From a virus (lineage: Duplodnaviria > Heunggongvirae > Uroviricota > Caudoviricetes), in the IMG/VR virus record IMGVR_UViG_3300020057_001228, positions 64,001 to 128,000 of that record: a stretch of DNA of 64,000 nucleotides, one strand, 5' to 3'. Each line of letters opens with the position of its first letter. Position 1 is the first letter of the stretch. Below, in pieces: positions 1,992-62,599 of this stretch. Below the pieces are notes generated by a model, which was given only the letters and a program-made list of their open reading frames with translations, made no database searches and was not told the origin of the DNA. The position numbers and the translations under genes are program-made.

Positions 1992-3836
1992 ATGGCTCTA
2001 GAAAATAACCTATATCCTGATATCCAGTTTGAGGAGATCAACGACAGTCCTCGGCCTACCCAAGTTGGATCTACCAACCGTATTGGCCTAGTTGGAGTGT
2101 TTCGTAAGGGTCCAAACGGGACGTTCAGGTTGCGCAGCACGTTTGAAGAGTTTGCCAAGATGTATAGCGACACCACACATGCTGGTTCCGTTGCTGTACA
2201 AGAGGCCATGGACCAGGGTGCCGATGACTTCGGTATCATCCGTGTCATGGGTTCTGCCAAGGCAGCCTCTGGTAACATCATCTTCTCTACAGCTGTAGTA
2301 ACAGCCGGTAGTGTTGAGTTCACCTTCCAGAGATTCCAGGTAGACGGCGTCACCCAGATTGGTGCTGACGTTGTTGTAGCCATTGGCGTAACTGGTGGTA
2401 TGTCTGCTGCAGCTATTGCCAACGCAGCTGTAACCGCTATCAACGCTGACTCTGGTGTGAACACGTTCATCACTGCTGTCTACGACACTGGTGGTACTGT
2501 AACCATCCAGGCCGATACCAAGGCTGCTATCACCAACTACTACAAAGTTAAGTTGGAGATCCCTGGCGTTGGTGGTGCTGGTGGCGTAACCGTATCCCCA
2601 CTCGTAGCTACTTTTTTAACTGGCGGTGCCGATGGACCAGCGCGTTCCACAGCAATCGTTCAGGACCGTCAGGTTGTACCAGTTGACCTATTCAGGATTG
2701 ACGCAGCATTCGATGGTACCTGGGGCGACTTCGTTCAGTTCACTATCACGAATGGTTCTGTATCTGGTAAGTTCAACCTTATCGTTACTGACACGTTCAA
2801 TAGCCACCAGGAGTCTTACTTCGATCTAGACATCAGCAACCCACTAAACCTGGACGCTGACACCAATGAAGTTCTAGCCACTCGTGGCTCTAACCTCGCT
2901 CGTGTGTTCTACATTGGAGCTGGTACCTTCTCTGCTGAGCTTCCTGCTATTAGCACGGATGTTCCGCTAGTTGGTGGATCTGATGGTCCAGCGATCGAGC
3001 TAGATGACTATATTGATGCACTAACCACTCTGAAGATGAATGTCGCCAACATCATCCTATCCGCTGGTAGTGTAGACAACACGATTCGCGCTGCTCTAAT
3101 CGCACAGGCTGAAACGTCGGAGGCTATCTCAGGGTTCCGTCTAGCCGTTCTAAACGCTGGCAAGAACATGCCTATCGAGACTCTGGATACAGTGAGCTCT
3201 CCATTCAACACTACGACTGGCTCTGCCGTCATGGTTGCTGGTTGGGCTACTTACGCTGGTCAGCCACGTCTATCTAGGTTCGGTGGTTCTCCAGATGGTC
3301 TGTACGCAGGACACTTGGTAGCTACACCAATCCAGGTATCGCCTGCAGCTCGTAGCAGCTCTCCGTTCATCCAGAACATCGTAGAAGTTGATACCGTCAT
3401 GACAGGGCAGGCCTTCAACAACTACACCAAGGCTCGTATGGAAGCTCTTGTTCTTGATATTGCAACCGGTGGATTCCACTGCCTAAACGGCCGTACACTG
3501 TCTTCTGATGGTGCATGGTACTGGGTATCTGTCCGCAGGGTGTATAATCAGATCAAGTCCGACCTGTTCCGTGCAATCCAGTGGGTCAAGTCTCAGCCGA
3601 ACACTACGGCTATGCGTAACCAGCTCAAGCAGCAGCTAGATACCTACATGGGTCTACTGCTAGCCAGAGGGGTTATTGCTGCTACCAAGCCTTCGCTTGT
3701 TGACAGTACCAACAACCCACCTGATCGTGTGGCAAGCGGCTATCTCCGTGCAGAAGTTTACTTCGTGCCTGTATTCCCTGCAGACCACGTGATAATCGGA
3801 GTACGTAGGTTCCTAGCGGCTGATGTACTAGCGTAA
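1992..3836 (+). CDS. contractile tail sheath protein
   Basis: N-terminal 'YPDIQFEEINDSPRP...IGLVGVFRKGP' and C-terminal 'WYWVSVRRVYNQIK...LLARGVI...NNPPDRVASGYLRAEVYFVPVFPADHVII' are typical sheath motifs. AGGAGAGG SD upstream. Confidence 0.92.
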   Translation: MALENNLYPDIQFEEINDSPRPTQVGSTNRIGLVGVFRKGPNGTFRLRSTFEEFAKMYSDTTHAGSVAVQEAMDQGADDFGIIRVMGSAKAASGNIIFSTAVVTAGSVEFTFQRFQVDGVTQIGADVVVAIGVTGGMSAAAIANAAVTAINADSGVNTFITAVYDTGGTVTIQADTKAAITNYYKVKLEIPGVGGAGGVTVSPLVATFLTGGADGPARSTAIVQDRQVVPVDLFRIDAAFDGTWGDFVQFTITNGSVSGKFNLIVTDTFNSHQESYFDLDISNPLNLDADTNEVLATRGSNLARVFYIGAGTFSAELPAISTDVPLVGGSDGPAIELDDYIDALTTLKMNVANIILSAGSVDNTIRAALIAQAETSEAISGFRLAVLNAGKNMPIETLDTVSSPFNTTTGSAVMVAGWATYAGQPRLSRFGGSPDGLYAGHLVATPIQVSPAARSSSPFIQNIVEVDTVMTGQAFNNYTKARMEALVLDIATGGFHCLNGRTLSSDGAWYWVSVRRVYNQIKSDLFRAIQWVKSQPNTTAMRNQLKQQLDTYMGLLLARGVIAATKPSLVDSTNNPPDRVASGYLRAEVYFVPVFPADHVIIGVRRFLAADVLA

Positions 3837-53636: not shown

Positions 53637-55101
53637 ACACGTATCCTGGGTACTTTTCATTGTAGTGATATCGCCGTGCGTATACTTGATCCTGTAGGTA
53701 ACAAGATTCAAGATCGCAGATATCTATAATCAAAGCTTCATCCTTACCCTCGTAGGTTCTAAGGACTCTACCAGCTCTCTGTACAGTCTGGATACCAGAC
53801 CTACCAGCACCAGCTACTACAACGGTTCTCAAACGCTTGATGTTGATACCCGTCACCCAGATTACAGAGGCGACTACAATGTCGATCTCCCCAGTGGCTA
53901 CCTTGTCTTTGACCTCTTTACGCTTATCAGTCTTAGTATCACCATTGATAAGCACGCATGAATCAGAGACTGCCTTAAGAGCCAAGTAGAGTGACTTCCC
54001 ATGGTCTATCCGATCAAACAAAACTAGCACTGGGCCAGCCTCATTCTCTAGACACTTTTTTACCTGGAAGGCAATGTACTCGGTTCTTTCCGTGTTAGTC
54101 GTAACAGCCTGGTTGTACACTTCAGAGAAGGCAGGCTTAGCCCCTTTTACTCTATAGCTCTTGTGGTCGAACATGTGGAGTTCTACTCTAGGTTTGCACA
54201 AGAACCCATCGTCTATTAGACGTGATGGACTTATGCTAAGCCTACTAGGCCCAAGGATGCCCTCCATGACCATCTCTGCCCCATCCTCTCGTCTGAGAGT
54301 AGCAGTGAAGCCGTAACGCCTTACAGCATTAGGTACCATGTAGCTAACGATCTGATATGACTCAGCAGCAGCTCCATGGCATTCATCTACGATCCACATC
54401 TTTGTACCGTGTAGCCAAGCTAGTCTTTCGACTAGACCCTTATCTGCAACATCATATACGAGACGCTTTGATCGCTTCTCGATACCTATGTCGTGCACTA
54501 GGCTTTGTATCGTACACACTGTGATGCGGTTCGAGGTATCTTTTTCACCATCACCATAGATACCAACCTTCTCTCCAGTAAACCTAGAGAGTTCATCTCT
54601 AGTTTGGAAGAGTAGATCTAACGATGGAACAGTGATCAGAACCTTGAGGTCTTTGTTCCTCATACATACTTCAGATATGCAGACTGTCTTGCCACCACCG
54701 GTTGGTACTTCTACCATGCCATTGGAGTGAGCTAACAGAGACTTCACGACTTCCTTCTGATAATCATAGAGAGATTCAATCTGAATATCCTCTACCATCT
54801 CAGGTATGTTGAGTTCACACTGAAGAGTTGCATCAGGGTATAGGTTAGTAACAGCTGTCATGAGCCCTGCTGGGAACTCCTTAGAGCGCCTATCGTAGAG
54901 CCTGACCTTAGGATCCCACCCAGGGATGTATCGCTTGTTGTAGACCATCCTACCGAGTCCTGGAGAGTAGATAAACTTCTGACCAAACGCAGCGTACTTA
55001 GCTCCGTCAGGTTCATAAGACATCATCTCGGCTAACGCTAAATCCGTGGCCTGGTCTGTACCATAGATCTTGGCTCTATGCCCGTTGAATATGATATGCA
55101 C
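53605..55101 (-). CDS. SF2 DExH helicase (UvsW/XPB-like)
   Basis: 'LYDYQ', 'VPTGGGKT', 'IVDECH', 'GFTATL.R.DG', 'TGINI', 'QRAGRVLR'. Confidence 0.92.
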   Translation of the reverse strand: MHIIFNGHRAKIYGTDQATDLALAEMMSYEPDGAKYAAFGQKFIYSPGLGRMVYNKRYIPGWDPKVRLYDRRSKEFPAGLMTAVTNLYPDATLQCELNIPEMVEDIQIESLYDYQKEVVKSLLAHSNGMVEVPTGGGKTVCISEVCMRNKDLKVLITVPSLDLLFQTRDELSRFTGEKVGIYGDGEKDTSNRITVCTIQSLVHDIGIEKRSKRLVYDVADKGLVERLAWLHGTKMWIVDECHGAAAESYQIVSYMVPNAVRRYGFTATLRREDGAEMVMEGILGPSRLSISPSRLIDDGFLCKPRVELHMFDHKSYRVKGAKPAFSEVYNQAVTTNTERTEYIAFQVKKCLENEAGPVLVLFDRIDHGKSLYLALKAVSDSCVLINGDTKTDKRKEVKDKVATGEIDIVVASVIWVTGINIKRLRTVVVAGAGRSGIQTVQRAGRVLRTYEGKDEALIIDICDLESCYLQDQVYARRYHYNEKYPGYVYEVQPGPVIP

Positions 55102-55118
55102 TATCGAAACCTCTATAG

Positions 55119-55165
55119 GTTAACAGATAGGAAGAGCGGACGTACCACTCCTCTTATCTATCAAC
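55119..55165 (-). promoter_or_regulatory. ~20-bp intergenic RNA hairpin with a UACGU loop
   Basis: Minus strand GTTGATAGATA-A-GAGGAGTGG-TACGT-CCGCTCTTC-C-TATCTGTTAAC pairs throughout, with G-U wobbles and one A-C mismatch. Confidence 0.65.
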
Positions 55166-55168
55166 TAA

Positions 55169-56107
55169 CTAGAATGGACCTTTCTTGCCTTTGGGAGCAG
55201 GAGCTTCCTCAGTGGCCTCTGCTGGTGCAGCTGCCTCTGGATTACCCTGGTTCTTACCGGACTCCAGGGCACCGTAGCTGCTTGAAATCACAGCCTGTTG
55301 CTCTGGTGTAGTTGGGGCCACCTCTGCGAACTTGAGGACATAGTACGGGGTACCAGCCTTAGTCTCAAGCTGCTCGATCTCGATGTCAGTCACCACCTGG
55401 AACGGGGCACTGATCCGGTACTTGTTCTTGATACGATCAACGTACTCATGGTACCGCTGTGCAGTAGCCTTAGTAACATTGATATATCCGATGAAAGGCT
55501 CAGCAATCTTCGTGCCGTTCTTCTGGGTAACGAGTACCTCAACACGACCAGTCTGGTTGCACTTCTTGAACCATTCGTCTTCATTCTCGTTCATGCATGA
55601 AACGCAAGAGAACGGGGTAGAGGCAAAGCTCTCAGTCCCGTCAGGGTTAACCGCAGTACCATTTCTGACAGCTTGCAGGTTGTAGCCCTTGATGAAGTTC
55701 CACTTGTTGTTACTAGGCATCATAGGATCACCTTCCTTGGTGACTGGTGCCTTGGTTACAGGGTCTACCCCAAAGGAGTAAGCCACTGAGCTGCAAGCAG
55801 GCCTCTTAGAACCCGCTGGCCAGTTGAGCATCCTGAAGTTGGAGCTCATGATAAGTACTCTCAGTACTTTAGCTGTATCCAGTCCAGTCTGGTCTGCAGC
55901 CTTCACGTAAACCTCATCAGGCTTACAGTACTGGAATTTGCCGTTGCCCTTGGTCATATTGATATTGACCTTACCTAGATTCTCATCGGACCTCCGAGGA
56001 GCCTTAGGCTTAGTCGTTTCTTCGATTTGAGCAGCGAATTCACCGATATCAAACCGTATGACATCTGCTACTGTGTTATCGATGGTGACCAAAGATGTGT
56101 CGGACAT
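55169..56107 (-). CDS. putative single-stranded DNA-binding/annealing protein
   Basis: Cys cluster (C...CxxC...C), OB-like C-terminal half and a low-complexity tail 'EATEEAPAPKGKKGPF'. Lies among replication genes. Confidence 0.55.
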   Translation of the reverse strand: MSDTSLVTIDNTVADVIRFDIGEFAAQIEETTKPKAPRRSDENLGKVNINMTKGNGKFQYCKPDEVYVKAADQTGLDTAKVLRVLIMSSNFRMLNWPAGSKRPACSSVAYSFGVDPVTKAPVTKEGDPMMPSNNKWNFIKGYNLQAVRNGTAVNPDGTESFASTPFSCVSCMNENEDEWFKKCNQTGRVEVLVTQKNGTKIAEPFIGYINVTKATAQRYHEYVDRIKNKYRISAPFQVVTDIEIEQLETKAGTPYYVLKFAEVAPTTPEQQAVISSSYGALESGKNQGNPEAAAPAEATEEAPAPKGKKGPF

Positions 56108-56112
56108 GTGTG

Positions 56113-56574
56113 CTACCTTCTTTCGATGTAGATTGCTGTGTTGATAGATTGGGTGACGGAGCATTTCACTGCTTCGTATCTAGCTGGCTCGTCAACTTCC
56201 TTGATAGATGAGTTCATCATCCTTAGGTTGTCGACAGATAGATGGTAATCAGCAAATACCTTCCTGCTCTTCAGAGAGGTCTTCGATTTACCAGTCGAGG
56301 ATAGTAGCATACCACCAACGTCGTTGGTAACAAAGTACCTGTATAAACCTTTTGCAGGCGTTATAACACCAGGTGCTTCGTATCTATGCCAAACCAGTTC
56401 ACCATCGTGCATTGGGTACGCGTCGATTCTGAATAGTACTTTTAGAATGACGTCGTCACATCTCCAAAGCCCAATGAGGGGATACCTGAGAGTTGGTAAA
56501 GGTCCAACATCAGGTCTGTAGAAACCACTGAAGTGGATCTCTTCTTCCCCAATTGTGATGTTTGATAACTGCAT
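56113..56574 (-). CDS. hypothetical protein
   Basis: 153-aa ORF from the MQLSN start. Confidence 0.55.
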   Translation of the reverse strand: MQLSNITIGEEEIHFSGFYRPDVGPLPTLRYPLIGLWRCDDVILKVLFRIDAYPMHDGELVWHRYEAPGVITPAKGLYRYFVTNDVGGMLLSSTGKSKTSLKSRKVFADYHLSVDNLRMMNSSIKEVDEPARYEAVKCSVTQSINTAIYIERR

Positions 56575-57314
56575 AGCTTTAACACGCTCGCTATGAATAG
56601 GATGCACCCTACCTTATATTCATACCTCAAGTTGTCAGCTCCGTAGCGACAAGTCTTCAGTATCAATAACCAGGGCGAATTCCTATACCTTATTACTTTT
56701 TCGATATACACCATCAGCCTGATTGCATCGTTATCCGATGGTATCTTAGCTGCTAAAGATATGCTCTCAGGTTTGCCTAGAGCGTCTATAATCCTCGCTG
56801 CTAGCCTTAGCTCCTCACCACCCAACACTACAGCTACATCAACCGATGAGAGGCCGCGTGGTTGTGGGTATGTAAGTAGCAGTTGCGACATGAGATTATT
56901 TACCGCCCGCCTGGAGAGCCGCCCAGAAGACTTAGGATCCAGGGCTATAGAGATTGCTTCAACAGCAGTGTCTGTGAACTTCAAATGTTTGATCCCTCTA
57001 GTTAACGCCCTCTCTACAGAGTTCGTCGTTAAAGGGGCTATACGTTTGATCTGCAGTTCGTGCTTATTAGCCCAAGCAGTCCACGCCCTGGGTATATCTG
57101 TATCCCAGCCTAGATGCCTGTTCTTCTTAGGTGTAGCAGTTATGAAGAGCATCTTCTCAGACGGGTTGAGGAACAGAAGAGGACCACCATTGATCCTGGT
57201 CTGTGCCCACTGTAATCTGAACTGACCATTAGTTAGGTCAGCACAGTTGATGACTTCAATTCCCGGAACAGCGTCTATTACGTCTTCCCTGCTACCTACG
57301 TAGAGATCAGTCAT
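56442..57314 (-). CDS. putative clamp-loader delta-like subunit
   Basis: Adjacent to the dnaX-like gene. Degenerate AAA+ layout 'LKFTDTAVEAISIAL...NLMSQLLL' with no P-loop. Confidence 0.5.
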   Translation of the reverse strand: MTDLYVGSREDVIDAVPGIEVINCADLTNGQFRLQWAQTRINGGPLLFLNPSEKMLFITATPKKNRHLGWDTDIPRAWTAWANKHELQIKRIAPLTTNSVERALTRGIKHLKFTDTAVEAISIALDPKSSGRLSRRAVNNLMSQLLLTYPQPRGLSSVDVAVVLGGEELRLAARIIDALGKPESISLAAKIPSDNDAIRLMVYIEKVIRYRNSPWLLILKTCRYGADNLRYEYKVGCILFIASVLKLCSYQTSQLGKKRSTSVVSTDLMLDLYQLSGIPSLGFGDVTTSF

Positions 57315-58356
57315 ACAAGAACTTCTTTACACCTTTCAGGTTGGTCAAGTCTACTTCCTTAACAGAGAGACTATAGGGCTGTCCAGCAATCGTTAAGAGT
57401 GCAGCTAGCCATATGTCGGTGTTACCTTGTAGACGAGCTCCTGAGAGTATGACCAGAGGCTTCTGCCAATAGAGCTTCGTTGTATCCCTAGAAGCCATGA
57501 ACACCAGATCATCAATAAGCTGAGAACCCGCACGTGCAGGCTGAGCCCCAGAGGTTATCCAAGACTTCCATCGCTTGGCAACTGCAGCTATATCTGTACG
57601 TGCCAGATCAGTCCACATCTTATTCCTATCAGCAGTGGAGATTCCTCCAATAGCTTTATAGATAAGATCCTCAGTGATCGGTTGTCCAGATAGGGTCAAA
57701 GACTCAACGATAGACCAGGCTTCCCTAAATGAACCGTTAGCCTCTTTAGCTACCATGATGAATGGAGTTGGGTCTGCTACCTTGAGAGCCTCTGCTATAC
57801 GTACACCTACAAGCTCTGGATCCACTCCATTGAATCTTACTCTTCTACATCTACCTTGGATTTCAGGGAGTACCTTATCCGGTTCAGTAGTACAGAAGAT
57901 AGCAACTGTTGTCTTCGGCATATTCTCCAAGAGAGTTAAGAACGGACTTATCGAGTCCTTCTTAAACTGGTGAACCTCATCGATGATGAGTATCTTATAC
58001 TTGGAGTTGATTGGGGCAGACCTCACGAACGGTCTAATAGTCTCTCTAACGAAATCGATAGATCGATCATTAGTACCATCTACGTAGAGCAGGTTAGGGT
58101 TATCCCCTTTGTCTACCGTGAGGCATGCCTTACATTCGTTACACGGATCTTCTTCGTTTGGGCTTTGGCAGATCAGCCTCTTCGCTATCAGGAGTGCTCC
58201 CGACGTCTTGCCGCTGCCGCTCGTCCCCTCTAAAAGGAATGCAGGTGGGAGTTGGTTCAACCTTATTGACCCTGTCAAGATCGCTTTCGCGACTGGCTGG
58301 CCTAAAAGTTGGTTCCATGTCCTCGGCCTGTTCTGTAGTGCTAAGGTTGATATCAT
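57307..58356 (-). CDS. dnaX: DNA polymerase III clamp-loader gamma-like subunit
   Basis: 'LALQNRPRTWNQLLGQ', Walker A 'GTSGSGKT', Zn motif 'C..PCNECKAC', 'IIDEVH', 'GRC', 'GSFR'. At 349 aa it lacks the tau C-terminal domains. Confidence 0.9.
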   Translation of the reverse strand: MISTLALQNRPRTWNQLLGQPVAKAILTGSIRLNQLPPAFLLEGTSGSGKTSGALLIAKRLICQSPNEEDPCNECKACLTVDKGDNPNLLYVDGTNDRSIDFVRETIRPFVRSAPINSKYKILIIDEVHQFKKDSISPFLTLLENMPKTTVAIFCTTEPDKVLPEIQGRCRRVRFNGVDPELVGVRIAEALKVADPTPFIMVAKEANGSFREAWSIVESLTLSGQPITEDLIYKAIGGISTADRNKMWTDLARTDIAAVAKRWKSWITSGAQPARAGSQLIDDLVFMASRDTTKLYWQKPLVILSGARLQGNTDIWLAALLTIAGQPYSLSVKEVDLTNLKGVKKFLYD

Positions 58357-58606
58357 CTACTACCTGTCTAGTTTCTACGATGCTTGCTACTTCTACGGCT
58401 GAGCGTGAGTAGCCACGGTATGATGGACGACCATAAGGGTCAACAAAGCATGCTCTACAGCCAAGCGCAACGATAGCGTCTTTGGTCACGATAACCGTTT
58501 GGTTCATCGTAGAGAACAGGTTTGTGGGCTTGTGTGGCTTACCAGGGCGACCACTACATACCAGATTGACTTCCTGGTTCTTCGTTAGGTCTAATACTGT
58601 AGCCAT
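58139..58606 (-). CDS. hypothetical protein (3' part overlaps dnaX)
   Basis: The N-terminal ~84 aa fill an otherwise empty gap; contains Cys/His residues. Confidence 0.45.
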   Translation of the reverse strand: MATVLDLTKNQEVNLVCSGRPGKPHKPTNLFSTMNQTVIVTKDAIVALGCRACFVDPYGRPSYRGYSRSAVEVASIVETRQVVDDINLSTTEQAEDMEPTFRPASRESDLDRVNKVEPTPTCIPFRGDERQRQDVGSTPDSEEADLPKPKRRRSV

Positions 58607-58901
58607 CAGGTAGTGGTCCTCCTCTTGCGAGCTTGTCTAGTCTAGCTCTCGCGTTATCTTTTGCTAAGCACAGAAGCTCACCGACTGACGAGATTGGCAT
58701 ATGGATATGCCCGAAGGTGGGAGCCCCGTTAACAGGGTCTATTAGTTCAGCGTGGAAGAGCGTCTCGCCAACCTCGGTGATTCGAATGATGTACGACTGG
58801 TTGAGGCGTAGTATCTCTTTCGACACTTTGTATAGATCGAGAAGATACTTTAGCTCTTTGTGACTAGCTTCCACTATAAGCATATCGGCCCCCATACCCA
58901 T
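58554..58901 (-). CDS. hypothetical protein
   Basis: TAATG-coupled to spoVS. Confidence 0.6.
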   Translation of the reverse strand: MGMGADMLIVEASHKELKYLLDLYKVSKEILRLNQSYIIRITEVGETLFHAELIDPVNGAPTFGHIHMPISSVGELLCLAKDNARARLDKLARGGPLPDGYSIRPNEEPGSQSGM

Positions 58902-59179
58902 TACCTAGGCTCTACAATGTACTGCAGAGCCGTCTTAGTCTCACCAGAGATAAGCACCTCTACAAATCCAGGTATCATAATAACATCCACATGAGTGCTG
59001 GCTAGCTGCCCTCTAGAAATAGCGATTGCTTTATTAGCCTGGTTCACAGCATCGGATCCAATAGCTCGAACGTATGACCGTCCAAACTCCTTGATCTGAT
59101 TAGTGATCGCACCGGCTACACTATTTGGGTTGCTTTTCGCACCGACCGTTAAGATCGTTTCAGCACTCGTTGCGGGCAT
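58901..59179 (-). CDS. spoVS: SpoVS-family protein (stage V sporulation protein S, Alba-like fold)
   Basis: 'ILTVGAKSNPNSVAGAI...RAIGSDAVNQANKAIAISRG...IPGFVEVLISGETKTALQYIVEPR' aligns end to end with Bacillus SpoVS as I recall it ('ILKVSAKSSPNSVAGAL...QAIGAGALNQAVKAVAIARG...IPAF..I.I.GEERTAIKLIVEPR'). Confidence 0.93.
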   Translation of the reverse strand: MPATSAETILTVGAKSNPNSVAGAITNQIKEFGRSYVRAIGSDAVNQANKAIAISRGQLASTHVDVIMIPGFVEVLISGETKTALQYIVEPR

Positions 59180-59183
59180 GTTG

Positions 59184-60977
59184 TTAATCTCCGTGTATCA
59201 TCGTTCTGGCGACTTCGATAGGATCGATGTATGCAGCTTCACCGCTGTCAAACTCTCTATCAATAGTCTGTGATGTAGCGCGAGCCTTACGTATCATTGC
59301 ATCGTAGATGTATTTATCAACGGTGTTAGACATGATCAAGTCGTAAACTGGAACAGGATCGTAAAACTGTCCAGGTCTAACCACCCTGTTATTACCCTGT
59401 GACCAAGAGACTGATCTCCAGTCATGGTCATGGTGGATAACATAAGAGGCTTCGACAAGAGTCAGACCTTCTGACATCAAGTCTAAGTTACCTACGAGTA
59501 CATCAAGAGTCTCATCCTCTTGGAACCCCTCGATACGCATATCGCGATCTAGCTGCGTAAGCTTCTTGGGAGCTGCACTCTTATCTTGGTCATAGATACG
59601 GGTGGTTGTTAACCCACCACTCTTGAGTAAAGATACGAGCCTATTACCTACTGCTATGCGGTTGGTGTAGACAATGACCTTACGGTTCTCTGCCTTAGCT
59701 TCCTTACATATCTCTAGTACCTTCTGCATCTTAGCAGTGTACTGAGTGTCCAGTGGTGGTAACAGCCCTACTTCCCAGGGGTGATTAGCAGCAGCTCTAA
59801 GGATGTTCAGGTGTGTTAGAACATTCTGTCTAGCTTTCATCCTGGAGACGGTACCCTTGTCCATCTGAACAATGGCGTCCTCTATCAGGAGAAGCATCTG
59901 CTGATGAATCTTGTTGTAGTACTCTACATGATCATCGGAGGCCTGTATGAGACATAGCTGAGAGTTTACCTTAGGGAACTTAACGTGTGGAGATACTTCT
60001 CCGTCCTTGAAGGTTAATCTATGGACTAGGTGTTTGGTAGCGTTATGAAACGCTGGTACCTGATCCGCTGCTATACCTGGTGCAGGTCTCTTCTTGATTG
60101 ACTTGGTACCCTCTTCACCAGTTACGAAGTCACGTGTGTGAGCTTCTACTCTAGTGAACTTACGGGTAAAGCCAGCTACTGTGAATGGGAACTCTGGTGA
60201 CTTCTCTCTGTAGACGACAGCAAGGATAGAGGACAGGTGTTCTACCCAACCATCCATAGGAGTACCAGTGAGTCCTAGGACTCTCTTAGCCTTCTTACGA
60301 AGCTCCTTGACGGCATGAGTACGTTGAGTCCCTACCTTCAGTCTGTGGATCTCATCAATGATCAACAAGCTTGGTGGATATCTATGCCTGAATAACTTGT
60401 ACATAGGAATGCCAACCTTACGATCGGACTTACGTCCACGTTCAGTCTGCTTCTTCAGTAGGTCGTAATGATAGATCCAGATCGGAGCCTTTGAAAGCCT
60501 AGCTGATAGTTCACCATCAATGATCTGTGCATACTTATCCATACCAGCTTTACTAAGCTCACCCTTTAACCAAACGAGGTTGAGAGTATGTCTAGGAGCC
60601 ATGATATGAATAGAGCCAGGCTTCAAGTCTTTGAGCTGCTCTTTGTAGATACCCATGATCATCAGGATAGCTTCGTAGCTCTTACCAGTACCAGCCTCAT
60701 GGGCAAACAAGTTGTTCTGTCTGAGAGCACCTAGACAAGCGTAGCGTAGTTGGTAGGGCCGTGGTGGCCTCTCACGTAGCTTAGGTATGGTCGCTATCTT
60801 GTGCTCTAGGTATGTCTCAATGTTGTCATAGTCAGGGATACCTAACAGAGTTTCCTCTGGGGTTATCTTCAGACCTAGTTTAGCGAACTCCTCTGGGGAG
60901 TTAACAATCAATCTTTGATCCGTCATCGTTAGCATGTAACTTCGAGCTTCGGCCATATAGTTTGATTGGGTGTCCAA
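59184..60977 (-). CDS. SNF2-family helicase/translocase
   Basis: 'PRPYQ', 'HEAGTGKS', 'IIDEIH', 'LTGTPM', 'SEGLTL.EAS.VI...DW', 'Q..RV.RPGQ...V.VYDL'. Confidence 0.9.
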   Translation of the reverse strand: MDTQSNYMAEARSYMLTMTDQRLIVNSPEEFAKLGLKITPEETLLGIPDYDNIETYLEHKIATIPKLRERPPRPYQLRYACLGALRQNNLFAHEAGTGKSYEAILMIMGIYKEQLKDLKPGSIHIMAPRHTLNLVWLKGELSKAGMDKYAQIIDGELSARLSKAPIWIYHYDLLKKQTERGRKSDRKVGIPMYKLFRHRYPPSLLIIDEIHRLKVGTQRTHAVKELRKKAKRVLGLTGTPMDGWVEHLSSILAVVYREKSPEFPFTVAGFTRKFTRVEAHTRDFVTGEEGTKSIKKRPAPGIAADQVPAFHNATKHLVHRLTFKDGEVSPHVKFPKVNSQLCLIQASDDHVEYYNKIHQQMLLLIEDAIVQMDKGTVSRMKARQNVLTHLNILRAAANHPWEVGLLPPLDTQYTAKMQKVLEICKEAKAENRKVIVYTNRIAVGNRLVSLLKSGGLTTTRIYDQDKSAAPKKLTQLDRDMRIEGFQEDETLDVLVGNLDLMSEGLTLVEASYVIHHDHDWRSVSWSQGNNRVVRPGQFYDPVPVYDLIMSNTVDKYIYDAMIRKARATSQTIDREFDSGEAAYIDPIEVARTMIHGD

Positions 60978-61324
60978 CTAGCTATCTGATGAATCTTCTC
61001 CTGCACTTGCAGCTTAGCTACAGAGAACTGGTCACGTCTGTATACCTGTTCTGCTTCTAGTGAGGATACTTGCTGTACCAGCTCCTCTTCTCTAGCGAGG
61101 AAGGATAGGTACTCAGCATCCTGCTGTAGCTTTAGGACTAGTGCTGCTGCACGTTTGGTATCGTTAGACCCGTCAGCGTCAGTCATCCTCATACGTAGCA
61201 TGTAGGCCTTTTTATACTTGATGGCCTCTTGTACTACTTTGAGTTGACGTCGGCTTTCTGTTAAGGCTTCAGAGATTTCTTTAATTGCTTTTGGGTATGC
61301 TTCGATAGGCATGTAATCAGCCAT
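60929..61324 (-). CDS. coiled-coil hypothetical protein
   Basis: AGGAG SD; heptad-rich sequence. Confidence 0.65.
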   Translation of the reverse strand: MADYMPIEAYPKAIKEISEALTESRRQLKVVQEAIKYKKAYMLRMRMTDADGSNDTKRAAALVLKLQQDAEYLSFLAREEELVQQVSSLEAEQVYRRDQFSVAKLQVQEKIHQIASWTPNQTIWPKLEVTC

Positions 61325-61339
61325 AGTGTGTCTCCTGAT

Positions 61340-61371
61340 ACGGCTACCAACCACGTAGGTTGGCACACCGT
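61340..61371 (-). promoter_or_regulatory. intergenic RNA hairpin with a UACGU loop
   Basis: Minus strand ACGGT-G-TG-CCAACC-TACGT-GGTTGG-TAGCCGT, ending 3 nt before the SD of the next gene. Confidence 0.6.
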
Positions 61372-61378
61372 TTAGCTA

Positions 61379-61597
61379 CTAAATGAAATCTCCAAACATC
61401 TTCTTAAGTTCTCTGTTTGGTCTTGTATTCTCTAGTTCTTCTGCGGCTGCCTTAGCGATAGCCTTGTAGCTAAGCCTAAGTGCCTTTACCTTTCCTGGTA
61501 GACGTACAGCGATGCCATCCTTCTCAACGATGACTACAATCTCTGTACCCTCTACTTCAACCTTACGGCTCAGGGGACTGCGAAGTTCTACTGCCAT
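61379..61597 (-). CDS. small hypothetical protein
   Basis: GAGGAG SD before the MAVELR start. Confidence 0.6.
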   Translation of the reverse strand: MAVELRSPLSRKVEVEGTEIVVIVEKDGIAVRLPGKVKALRLSYKAIAKAAAEELENTRPNRELKKMFGDFI

Positions 61598-61751
61598 TGT
61601 TCTGCGACTCCTCACAACGAATCTGTTCTAAGTTCATTATAGCCTCATAGAGGCTACGATCCAACAGTTTTCGCCTGGGAAAGTACTTCCTTATGACATG
61701 TTTTTGCCATTCAGGAAGACGGGATATACGGACTAGATTAGGACGTTCCAT
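61563..61751 (-). CDS. small hypothetical protein
   Basis: GGAAGAG SD-like sequence; fills the gap between neighbours. Confidence 0.5.
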   Translation of the reverse strand: MERPNLVRISRLPEWQKHVIRKYFPRRKLLDRSLYEAIMNLEQIRCEESQNNGSRTSQSPEP

Positions 61752-62325
61752 ACGTCTCTTCCAAGAGCTGTTTCAGCTTATCTAAATCCTTGAGGAACAT
61801 CCAGGGTACTGAACCTGTTTTGAATTGTCTATCCCCATCTAAGTCGAACGAACTGAATTGCTCGATGGTGGCTGGATTCCAAGTAACTAAATACTTGTAG
61901 CCCTTTAGGGGGTCGGTGAATACTTTGCCATGGATCTTACCAATACCACTCTCCACGTGGGGGAGTAGAGAAGTCTTAGCACGTTCGCCACAGATCATGA
62001 TGATCTTACACTGAACCAGCTTGAACTCTTGGTTGATCCACTTACGACAGGCATTCAACTCTTTCTCGGTAACGTCAAGCTTCTTAGGTGGGCACTTGAT
62101 AACGTTAGTAATGAATACATCACGTTCCATATCCAGTCCTACATAGGACGCCAATGCCGATCTGAGAAGCTTACCGCTAGGGCCCATCATAGGCCTTCTT
62201 AGTTTGGTCTCCTGGTTACCAGGGTAGTCGGAGACAATGATCAGCTTAGGGTTAGTAGGGCCTTCACCTGGGACAGTAATACCCTCGCCAAGCTTGCAGG
62301 CCTTACAGGCTATATCAATTAGCAT
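61738..62325 (-). CDS. family-4 uracil-DNA glycosylase-like protein with altered active-site motifs
   Basis: 'CKAC...VPGEGP...LIIVSDYPGNQE...PMMGPSGKLL...FITNVIKCPP...C'. Motif B reads WNPA instead of HP(S/A). Confidence 0.85.
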   Translation of the reverse strand: MLIDIACKACKLGEGITVPGEGPTNPKLIIVSDYPGNQETKLRRPMMGPSGKLLRSALASYVGLDMERDVFITNVIKCPPKKLDVTEKELNACRKWINQEFKLVQCKIIMICGERAKTSLLPHVESGIGKIHGKVFTDPLKGYKYLVTWNPATIEQFSSFDLDGDRQFKTGSVPWMFLKDLDKLKQLLEETYGTS

Positions 62326-62599
62326 TCTTCATGTGCCTCCTCGCTTGGTGGTACCAGGTTCTAAGGACGATTAGGATACCATCATGGTCACCTCCTATGT
62401 CAGACTCAGCCCACATCATGTTGTCTTCTAGCTGAGTAAGGAAGCCAGGTGGCCACCATTGCCCAGCATTCTCAGCCTGGTCCCAACGATTAACAAACAT
62501 GTAGACCCAGTAGCGCTTATTCCGTTCTCCCAAGCGTGACCCGTGGGGGCTTATGAGTAACGATATCTGCTTCTGAGAAGAGGACTGTGTATTGCTCAT
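62315..62599 (-). CDS. hypothetical protein
   Basis: GAGGGG SD; Trp-rich. Confidence 0.55.
   Translation of the reverse strand: MSNTQSSSQKQISLLISPHGSRLGERNKRYWVYMFVNRWDQAENAGQWWPPGFLTQLEDNMMWAESDIGGDHDGILIVLRTWYHQARRHMKNAN

Follow-up and report, generated by a model that had tools for sequence, protein, structure and literature searches.

What does a tailed phage gain from a gene of the SpoVS (stage V sporulation protein S) family that lies in the middle of its replication genes? SpoVS occurs widely in bacteria and is very conserved, and to our knowledge its biochemical activity has never been determined. When spoVS is met in a phage, it is usually read, without test, as an auxiliary gene for the manipulation of sporulation. 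The window analyzed here is a stretch of 64,000 nucleotides covering bases 64001-128000 of a 166,577-bp IMG/VR record, which is 87% complete and labelled 'provirus'. The preliminary description of the window left two readings of the gene side by side: manipulation of host dormancy or division, and use of SpoVS as the phage's own RNA/DNA-binding regulator.

The features on which the argument depends are listed below in the direction of transcription.

59184..60977, minus strand: SNF2-family helicase gene, directly upstream of SpoVS (SNF2-rel_dom 48.6 bits, Helicase_C, ResIII; PHROG 62 DNA helicase, E 3.5e-53)
59189..59192, minus strand: GGAG Shine-Dalgarno-like motif at the tail end of the SNF2 coding region, preceding the SpoVS start codon by 9 nt, as read from the sequence
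58901..59179, minus strand: SpoVS-family (Alba-like fold) gene, intact, with an ATG start and 92 aa (PF04232, 2EH1, AF2 model, Foldseek)
58554..58901, minus strand: orf115, whose ATG overlaps the SpoVS stop and which is co-conserved with SpoVS
58139..58606, minus strand: orfZ, small and conserved, in another frame and with a CxxC Cys pair; a homologue is present in the related contig L168
57307..58356, minus strand: DnaX/delta'-like clamp-loader ATPase gene (PF13177 DNA_pol3_delta2, 107 bits; PHROG 5846 clamp loader, E 2.3e-39)

Family, fold and divergence of the phage protein

The ORF in the window was matched by the Pfam SpoVS model PF04232 with an E-value of 1.7e-26 and 92.2 bits, covering model positions 2-82 of 83, when the curated cut-off is 24 bits; the search at the genome level gave 91.5 bits for the same gene. 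It was also matched by PHROG 35646 'sporulation protein' (E 1.7e-15) and by the Thermus thermophilus SpoVS-related protein 2EH1/2EK0 (E 7.4e-18). The AF2 model, which was made from a 21-sequence alignment, has a mean pLDDT of 90.8 and the succession strand-helix-strand-helix-strand-strand. In Foldseek, it agreed with the SpoVS structures 9a7h_B, 2eh1 and 2ek0 at TM 0.87-0.89 and rmsd 0.7-1.0 A, and with the Alba-fold structures 2z7c, 1h0x, 1y9x and 3u6y at E 6e-5 to 7e-4 and TM 0.58-0.64; over all Alba-type matches, the range was E 6e-5 to 1e-3 and TM about 0.55-0.65. (Entry 9A7H is an integrative YunD-SP5S model from in-cell cross-links, and its chain B is B. subtilis SpoVS.) The model thus has the Alba/IF3-C-like fold in the Foldseek comparison, and the protein is a single domain in the range of 85-95 aa with the Thermus-like SpoVS fold. 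Its membership of the SpoVS family and its fold are settled, and the HMM assignment upheld the preliminary description, which had announced a full-length SpoVS homologue on a phage. The background given there on the Alba-like fold, on the occurrence in non-sporulating phyla and on the septation and sporulation phenotypes also checks out (PMC2732212, PMC8510167; control genomes). The phrase 'high similarity' is fair, but the protein is not close to cellular SpoVS, since the identity over residues 9-92 is 52-56%.

When compared to cellular SpoVS (B. subtilis SpoVS/SP5S, B. thuringiensis SpoVS1/2 and Thermus 2EH1/2EK0), the phage copy is likewise a single domain of about 90 aa with the same beta-alpha-beta-alpha-beta-beta fold, and 10 invariant residues are common to both. 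It differs in its place among replication genes and in having GSDA for GAGA, Thr11 and Gln86. The family-invariant pattern is S-x-P...V-A-G-A; G-A-G-A-x-N-Q-x-x-K-A-x-A-I-x-R; P-x-F, and the residues kept in the phage protein are S16, P18, A22, G41, A44, N46, Q47, K50, R56, P70 and F72. In the GAGA loop, Gly43 is the consensus in 159 and Ala42 in 158 of 163 sequences, and the GSDA of the phage protein adds an acidic residue there. Position 11 is Thr, compared with Lys/Arg in 153 of the 163 sequences, and position 86 is Gln, compared with Lys/Arg in 124. Residues 26, 63, 66 and 68 also depart from a consensus held by at least 80% of the sequences. The nearest homologue, a 92-aa metagenome protein with 65% identity (P0044), has Thr11, Thr26, Gln58 and Gln86 as well, and the second Gly is missing from it too; these shared substitutions are traits of the lineage and not noise.

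Cellular copies are 81% identical even across phyla, as seen for a Dictyoglomaceae copy and a Bacillaceae copy. The syntenic phage copies of the window and of L168 are 51% identical to each other, and each is about 55% identical to cellular copies, from which it follows that they diverged fast from a canonical-like ancestor.

The net charge of the phage protein is +1, which is equal to the SpoVS family median and unlike that of the strongly basic Alba. Fold topology and a nucleic-acid-handling gene context are shared with archaeal and eukaryotic Alba proteins (Sso10b, Ssh10b and Pyrococcus Alba; Rpp20/Rpp25 and Pop6/Pop7), while the phage protein has no detectable sequence similarity to them, is not basic and stands outside the Alba family proper. 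These observations bear on the idea that the protein forms a chromatin-like or protective coat, by which phage DNA or RNA would be compacted or shielded from host nucleases. Such a coat seems quite improbable to us: a charge of +1 is unlike that of chromatin proteins, the gene is missing from most relatives of the phage, and it lies outside the virion module, although the likeness in fold (TM about 0.6 to archaeal Alba chromatin proteins) speaks for it and expression with the early or replication module would suit the protection of the genome.

Gene order and the SpoVS-orf115-orfZ cassette

The statement that SpoVS is coupled into the replication genes was borne out at both ends of the gene. 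The SNF2 stop TAA occupies 59186-59184 and the spacer from SNF2 to SpoVS, as read from the sequence, is 4 nt, while in the TAATG at 58901 the SpoVS stop overlaps the ATG of orf115. The location 'between SNF2 and dnaX' is correct in so far as both genes flank SpoVS, but two small genes, orf115 and orfZ, intervene before the clamp-loader gene. The second of them occupies what appeared to be a 197-nt gap; it shares 53 nt with orf115 and 218 nt with the start of the clamp-loader gene. It has no Pfam family match and no similarity to the slot ORF of another relative, L006. Nevertheless, orfZ is a real gene, because the relative L168 has a counterpart of 43% identity over 100 aa (L168:7050-7397, E 2e-23), which overlaps the clamp-loader start likewise. 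Pfam, PHROG and NCBIfam returned nothing for orf115, a word-index search gave no homologue, nothing useful came from the Atlas, and the predicted structure model was poor. The sole homologue found is the gene right after SpoVS in L168 (37% identity, E 1e-19).

The wider minus-strand block contains a family-4-like UDG, a DEAD-type helicase, a DnaG-type primase and RNase HII, together with a second helicase, a PD-(D/E)XK nuclease and a dNMP kinase, and it is the replication arm of the phage. In the block 55000-62500, promoter-like and terminator-like matches were at the chance level and Rfam gave no family. This fits co-transcription of the block, with the reservation that the promoters of the phage's own RNA polymerases may differ. 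The best terminator-like match of the block is a 9-bp hairpin with a UACGU loop at 55131-55153 (minus strand), just 3' of a 331-aa gene; it has no clean U-tract, and the same loop was noted at 61340-61371. Between the clamp loader and the DEAD helicase there are three minus-strand genes with no family match (55169-56164, 56113-56607 and 56442-57314). Two of them, orf290 and orf164, are in conserved order in the related contigs L004, L169 and L170, and they may code for further clamp-loader or replisome subunits.

A search with the SNF2 protein returned six related phage contigs with identities of 37-63%. The closest relative is L168, a contig of 163-185 kb from the Hainich H41 groundwater assembly with a locus GC of 36.6%, and its identity to the window is 63% for SNF2, 54% for the clamp loader and 59% for UDG. 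Its gene order is the same as that of the window, namely orf413, UDG, orf145, SNF2, SpoVS, the orf115 homologue, the orfZ homologue and the clamp loader. The SNF2 gene of L168 (3690-6524) encodes 944 aa, compared with 597 aa in the window, where an intein-like insert of about 350 aa is lacking. This insert has a LAGLIDADG-type motif and splits the Walker A region, starting with Cys after GTGK and ending in HN.

The other relatives are organized differently at this point. In L004, L169 and L170 (SNF2 about 41%), the clamp loader is directly joined, 38-114 nt after SNF2, and L005 and L006 have about 1 kb between the two genes, occupied by other small ORFs. From this varied content, the SNF2/clamp-loader junction is seen to be a variable slot, and SpoVS-orf115-orfZ the cargo kept there by one sub-lineage. 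Among three complete IMG/VR relatives, SpoVS was found only in G001, elsewhere in the genome and very divergent (43% identity). This G001 copy (L007:1483-1767) lies 179.5 kb into the 194.6-kb genome, has the N-terminal motif HTEPAKLAG as against KSNPNSVAG, and is near an ORF that looks like a calcineurin-like phosphoesterase (2598-3236, minus strand).

Could the gene then be a dispensable passenger, picked up by chance in a variable slot and of no use to the phage? The variation of the junction among relatives would agree with this, as would the sporadic occurrence of SpoVS in the group and its other position in G001. However, the gene is intact with the composition of its flanks, the 10 invariant residues of the family have been kept, and a relative with only 54-63% identity in its other proteins has kept it along with both neighbours, so we regard a passenger as very improbable indeed. 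The GC of the SpoVS gene is 47.3% and that of its flanks 46-47%, with GC3 likewise equal. A recent horizontal import of SpoVS was rejected on account of this agreement.

The SpoVS tree, which was computed from 164 sequences and 91 columns, is little resolved. The window protein and P0044 are joined in it with an SH-aLRT of 97-98. When the window, P0044 and L168 copies were constrained together, lnL was higher by 22 than in the free search, with an AU p of 0.77. The three copies probably have a single origin, as the constrained tree fits better and is unrejected. Pattern scans of viral contigs with the window protein and P0044 gave no match, and neither did a metagenome scan with the alignment of the two.

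SpoVS in other phages and the signals of the host

Phage SpoVS is already known from PHROG 35646, annotated GenBank phages, IMG/VR contigs and virome papers, and our locus adds one case to a pattern that the databases already list. The survey of spoVS in phage genomes that the preliminary description had proposed was carried out. It returned 13 GenBank phage records, all with homologues at most 52% identical to the window protein, and a pattern scan of IMG/VR returned at least 512 viral contigs with a SpoVS relative, some of which are proviruses and may include host genes. The GenBank carriers include Bacillus phage BCD7, Lysinibacillus phages LysYB1/2, Bacillus phage KLEB27-3, Stenotrophomonas phage TS-12 and Streptomyces phages of the BRock group. 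Several of these copies are annotated as stage V sporulation protein S, and a SpoVS-named protein from an uncultured phage is present in BFVD (UniProt A0A6J5QJM8). The recorded phage copies are members of the same family on tailed phages, often beside replication or recombination genes; besides its low identity to them, the window copy differs in forming a separate long-branched lineage with P0044 and, probably, L168.

The SpoVS of TS-12 (L002, MW302330.1 10909-11184) is 73% identical to Bacillaceae SpoVS, and its recorded host is a gammaproteobacterium. It is far closer to cellular SpoVS than the other phage copies are, which indicates either a recent transfer or an odd host or record.

The neighbourhood of phage SpoVS was summarized for 31 dereplicated IMG/VR loci. 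Within two genes of SpoVS, we counted RecT four times, Gp157 twice and DnaG/Toprim about three times, as well as PolA, DnaA/IstB, PDDEXK, REP and two SMC-like ATPases, against two portal and two terminase genes. These are raw counts with no matched background and most neighbours are unannotated, and they are suggestive of annotated neighbours that belong mostly to replication and recombination. The complete arrangement SNF2-SpoVS-orf115-orfZ-clamp loader was absent from the other 160 loci examined.

As for the phage itself, the record contains a tail sheath and a large terminase and represents a 167-kb myovirus. It has three tRNA genes and a uniform GC of 47-50%. No tyrosine integrase, serine recombinase/resolvase, sigma-70 region 2, SpoVG or SpoVR was found in the 166.6-kb record, nor any other sporulation-named gene. 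The label 'provirus' is unsupported, as neither an integrase nor a resolvase is present and the composition is uniform. Identical proteins occur on a 198.8-kb contig, of which about 32 kb is absent from the record; this part may have been cut off as 'host' sequence on poor grounds.

The preliminary description also expected SpoVS to narrow the host range, an expectation that found no support. The protein is equally far (52-56% identity) from copies of Bacillota, Dictyoglomota, Thermotogota and Anaerolineae, it falls in no host clade of the tree, and homologues are also carried by phages recorded on Stenotrophomonas and Streptomyces. Apart from the SpoVS phylogeny, which gave no host signal, the RNase HII homologues are all metagenome proteins and no pointer to a host, the SNF2 gene has no close cultured relative, and 12 kb compared by megablast with GenBank phages matched none of them. 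For the large terminase, the best matches are those of the Microcystis phages Ma-LMM01/MaMV-DC (36%, E 2e-93), followed by a Microcoleus phage (32%), and further matches reach only 25%. The host is probably a non-Firmicute, and it may possess a SpoVS of its own. The host of L168 probably differs from that of the window phage, given the GC of 37%.

With these data, we can weigh the possibility of host takeover, in which the phage SpoVS would mimic, replace or titrate the host SpoVS and so alter septation, cell separation, dormancy or sigma-dependent transcription. An auxiliary gene of this kind should be close to the host's own copy, while the phage protein is at most 56% identical to any cellular SpoVS, compared with the 81% among cellular copies, and joins no host clade. 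Its near-invariant residues have been lost, the gene is coupled to an SNF2 helicase in the replication module, and a relative whose GC is very different has kept the cassette. Neither signs of lysogeny nor further developmental genes were seen in the record. Also, the nearest cultured relatives by terminase infect cyanobacteria, and the single cyanobacterial control genome has no SpoVS. What host takeover can draw on is the identity of the family itself and the filing of PHROG 35646 under 'moron, auxiliary metabolic gene and host takeover', together with the phenotypes of cellular SpoVS mutants, in which polar septation is delayed, a stage V block occurs, sigma-dependent expression is altered and spore release is affected (PMC2732212, PMC8510167). 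Virome papers on soil and an oxygen-minimum zone list viral spoVS as an auxiliary gene in this sense (PMC6172770, PMC8940887). On balance, we find host takeover unlikely, and the first of the two original readings was not borne out.

Candidate roles in phage nucleic-acid metabolism

The second reading, a regulator of the phage's own, fared better and is plausible, although it has to be kept conditional. In our version of it, to which we give a probability of roughly 0.55, phage SpoVS would be a nucleic-acid or replisome/recombination accessory protein made with the replication genes. We favor this for five reasons: the gene lies among the replication genes and is coupled to them in translation; the cassette is retained across hosts of different GC; the protein has diverged from every cellular copy; the family is present in Stenotrophomonas and Streptomyces phages, while SpoVS is missing from the control genomes of E. 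coli, Caulobacter, Corynebacterium and Synechococcus; and the record carries no other developmental or lysogeny gene.

The course of events may be pictured as follows. An ancestor of the sub-lineage would have gained a three-gene cassette, with SpoVS as its first gene followed by orf115 and orfZ, in the variable slot between SNF2 and the clamp loader, and the cassette would have been kept since. The product would be a diverged, phage-adapted small Alba-fold protein, probably dimeric like Alba, and it would be produced together with the SNF2 helicase, the clamp loader, helicases, primase and RNase HII. It would then act on phage nucleic acid or on replisome or recombination partners and not on the sporulation programme of the host.

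The binding of nucleic acid is the part of this picture that calls for the most care. DNA binding by SpoVS was predicted from its Alba-like fold (PMC2732212), a survey of 2024 still described the evidence for it as limited (PMC11621453), and in the literature we found no binding experiment for any SpoVS protein. The charge of +1, the acidic residue in GSDA and the loss of the basic positions 11 and 86 also count against a nucleic-acid role. Furthermore, 9A7H is the one solved-structure entry in which B. subtilis SpoVS is part of a complex, and by its title the partner is a protein, YunD; this is a hint that binding to proteins may be of greater importance than binding to nucleic acid.

Taken further, this hint leads to a protein-binding adaptor, in which the SpoVS fold would bind and regulate a protein, be it orf115, orfZ, the SNF2 helicase or an enzyme of the host, and would make no direct contact with nucleic acid. 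The tight coupling and co-conservation of SpoVS with orf115 and orfZ would be accounted for by an adaptor, and so would the near-neutral charge with its lost basic positions; the cross-link model of SpoVS with YunD supplies a cellular parallel. But the phage has no YunD-type metallophosphoesterase, and a partner such as orf115 offers neither a detectable family nor a good structure model. We hold an adaptor to be improbable. YunD itself was dropped as a lead, since the phage has no metallophosphoesterase and no paper linking YunD and SpoVS was found.

Under the accessory-protein reading, which we continue to prefer, the locus is a clean counter-example to the usual interpretation of phage spoVS: a lytic-looking phage of roughly 170-200 kb keeps a diverged SpoVS and two partner genes in its replication operon. 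It supports the view that phage SpoVS serves the nucleic-acid metabolism of the phage, and it calls for caution in inferring spore-forming hosts or dormancy control from spoVS in viromes. The addition to the existing catalogue is modest: in one lineage of large phages, for which nothing points to a spore-forming host, the SNF2-SpoVS-orf115-orfZ-clamp-loader cassette is conserved.

A broader and more tentative proposal, which we would not bet on at present, is that SpoVS is misnamed as a 'sporulation' protein and in general assists DNA replication, recombination or transcription as an Alba-like accessory factor, and that phage lineages such as this one recruited it with two dedicated partner genes to act alongside SNF2 and the clamp loader. 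If this were true, the phage cassette would disclose the biochemical activity of the whole SpoVS family.

The sequences collected for this work also included longer proteins. Four metagenome proteins of 426-494 aa (P0042, P0043, P0059 and P0191) contain four tandem SpoVS domains, and many metagenome proteins of 180-300 aa hold two; multi-domain architectures appear to be common.
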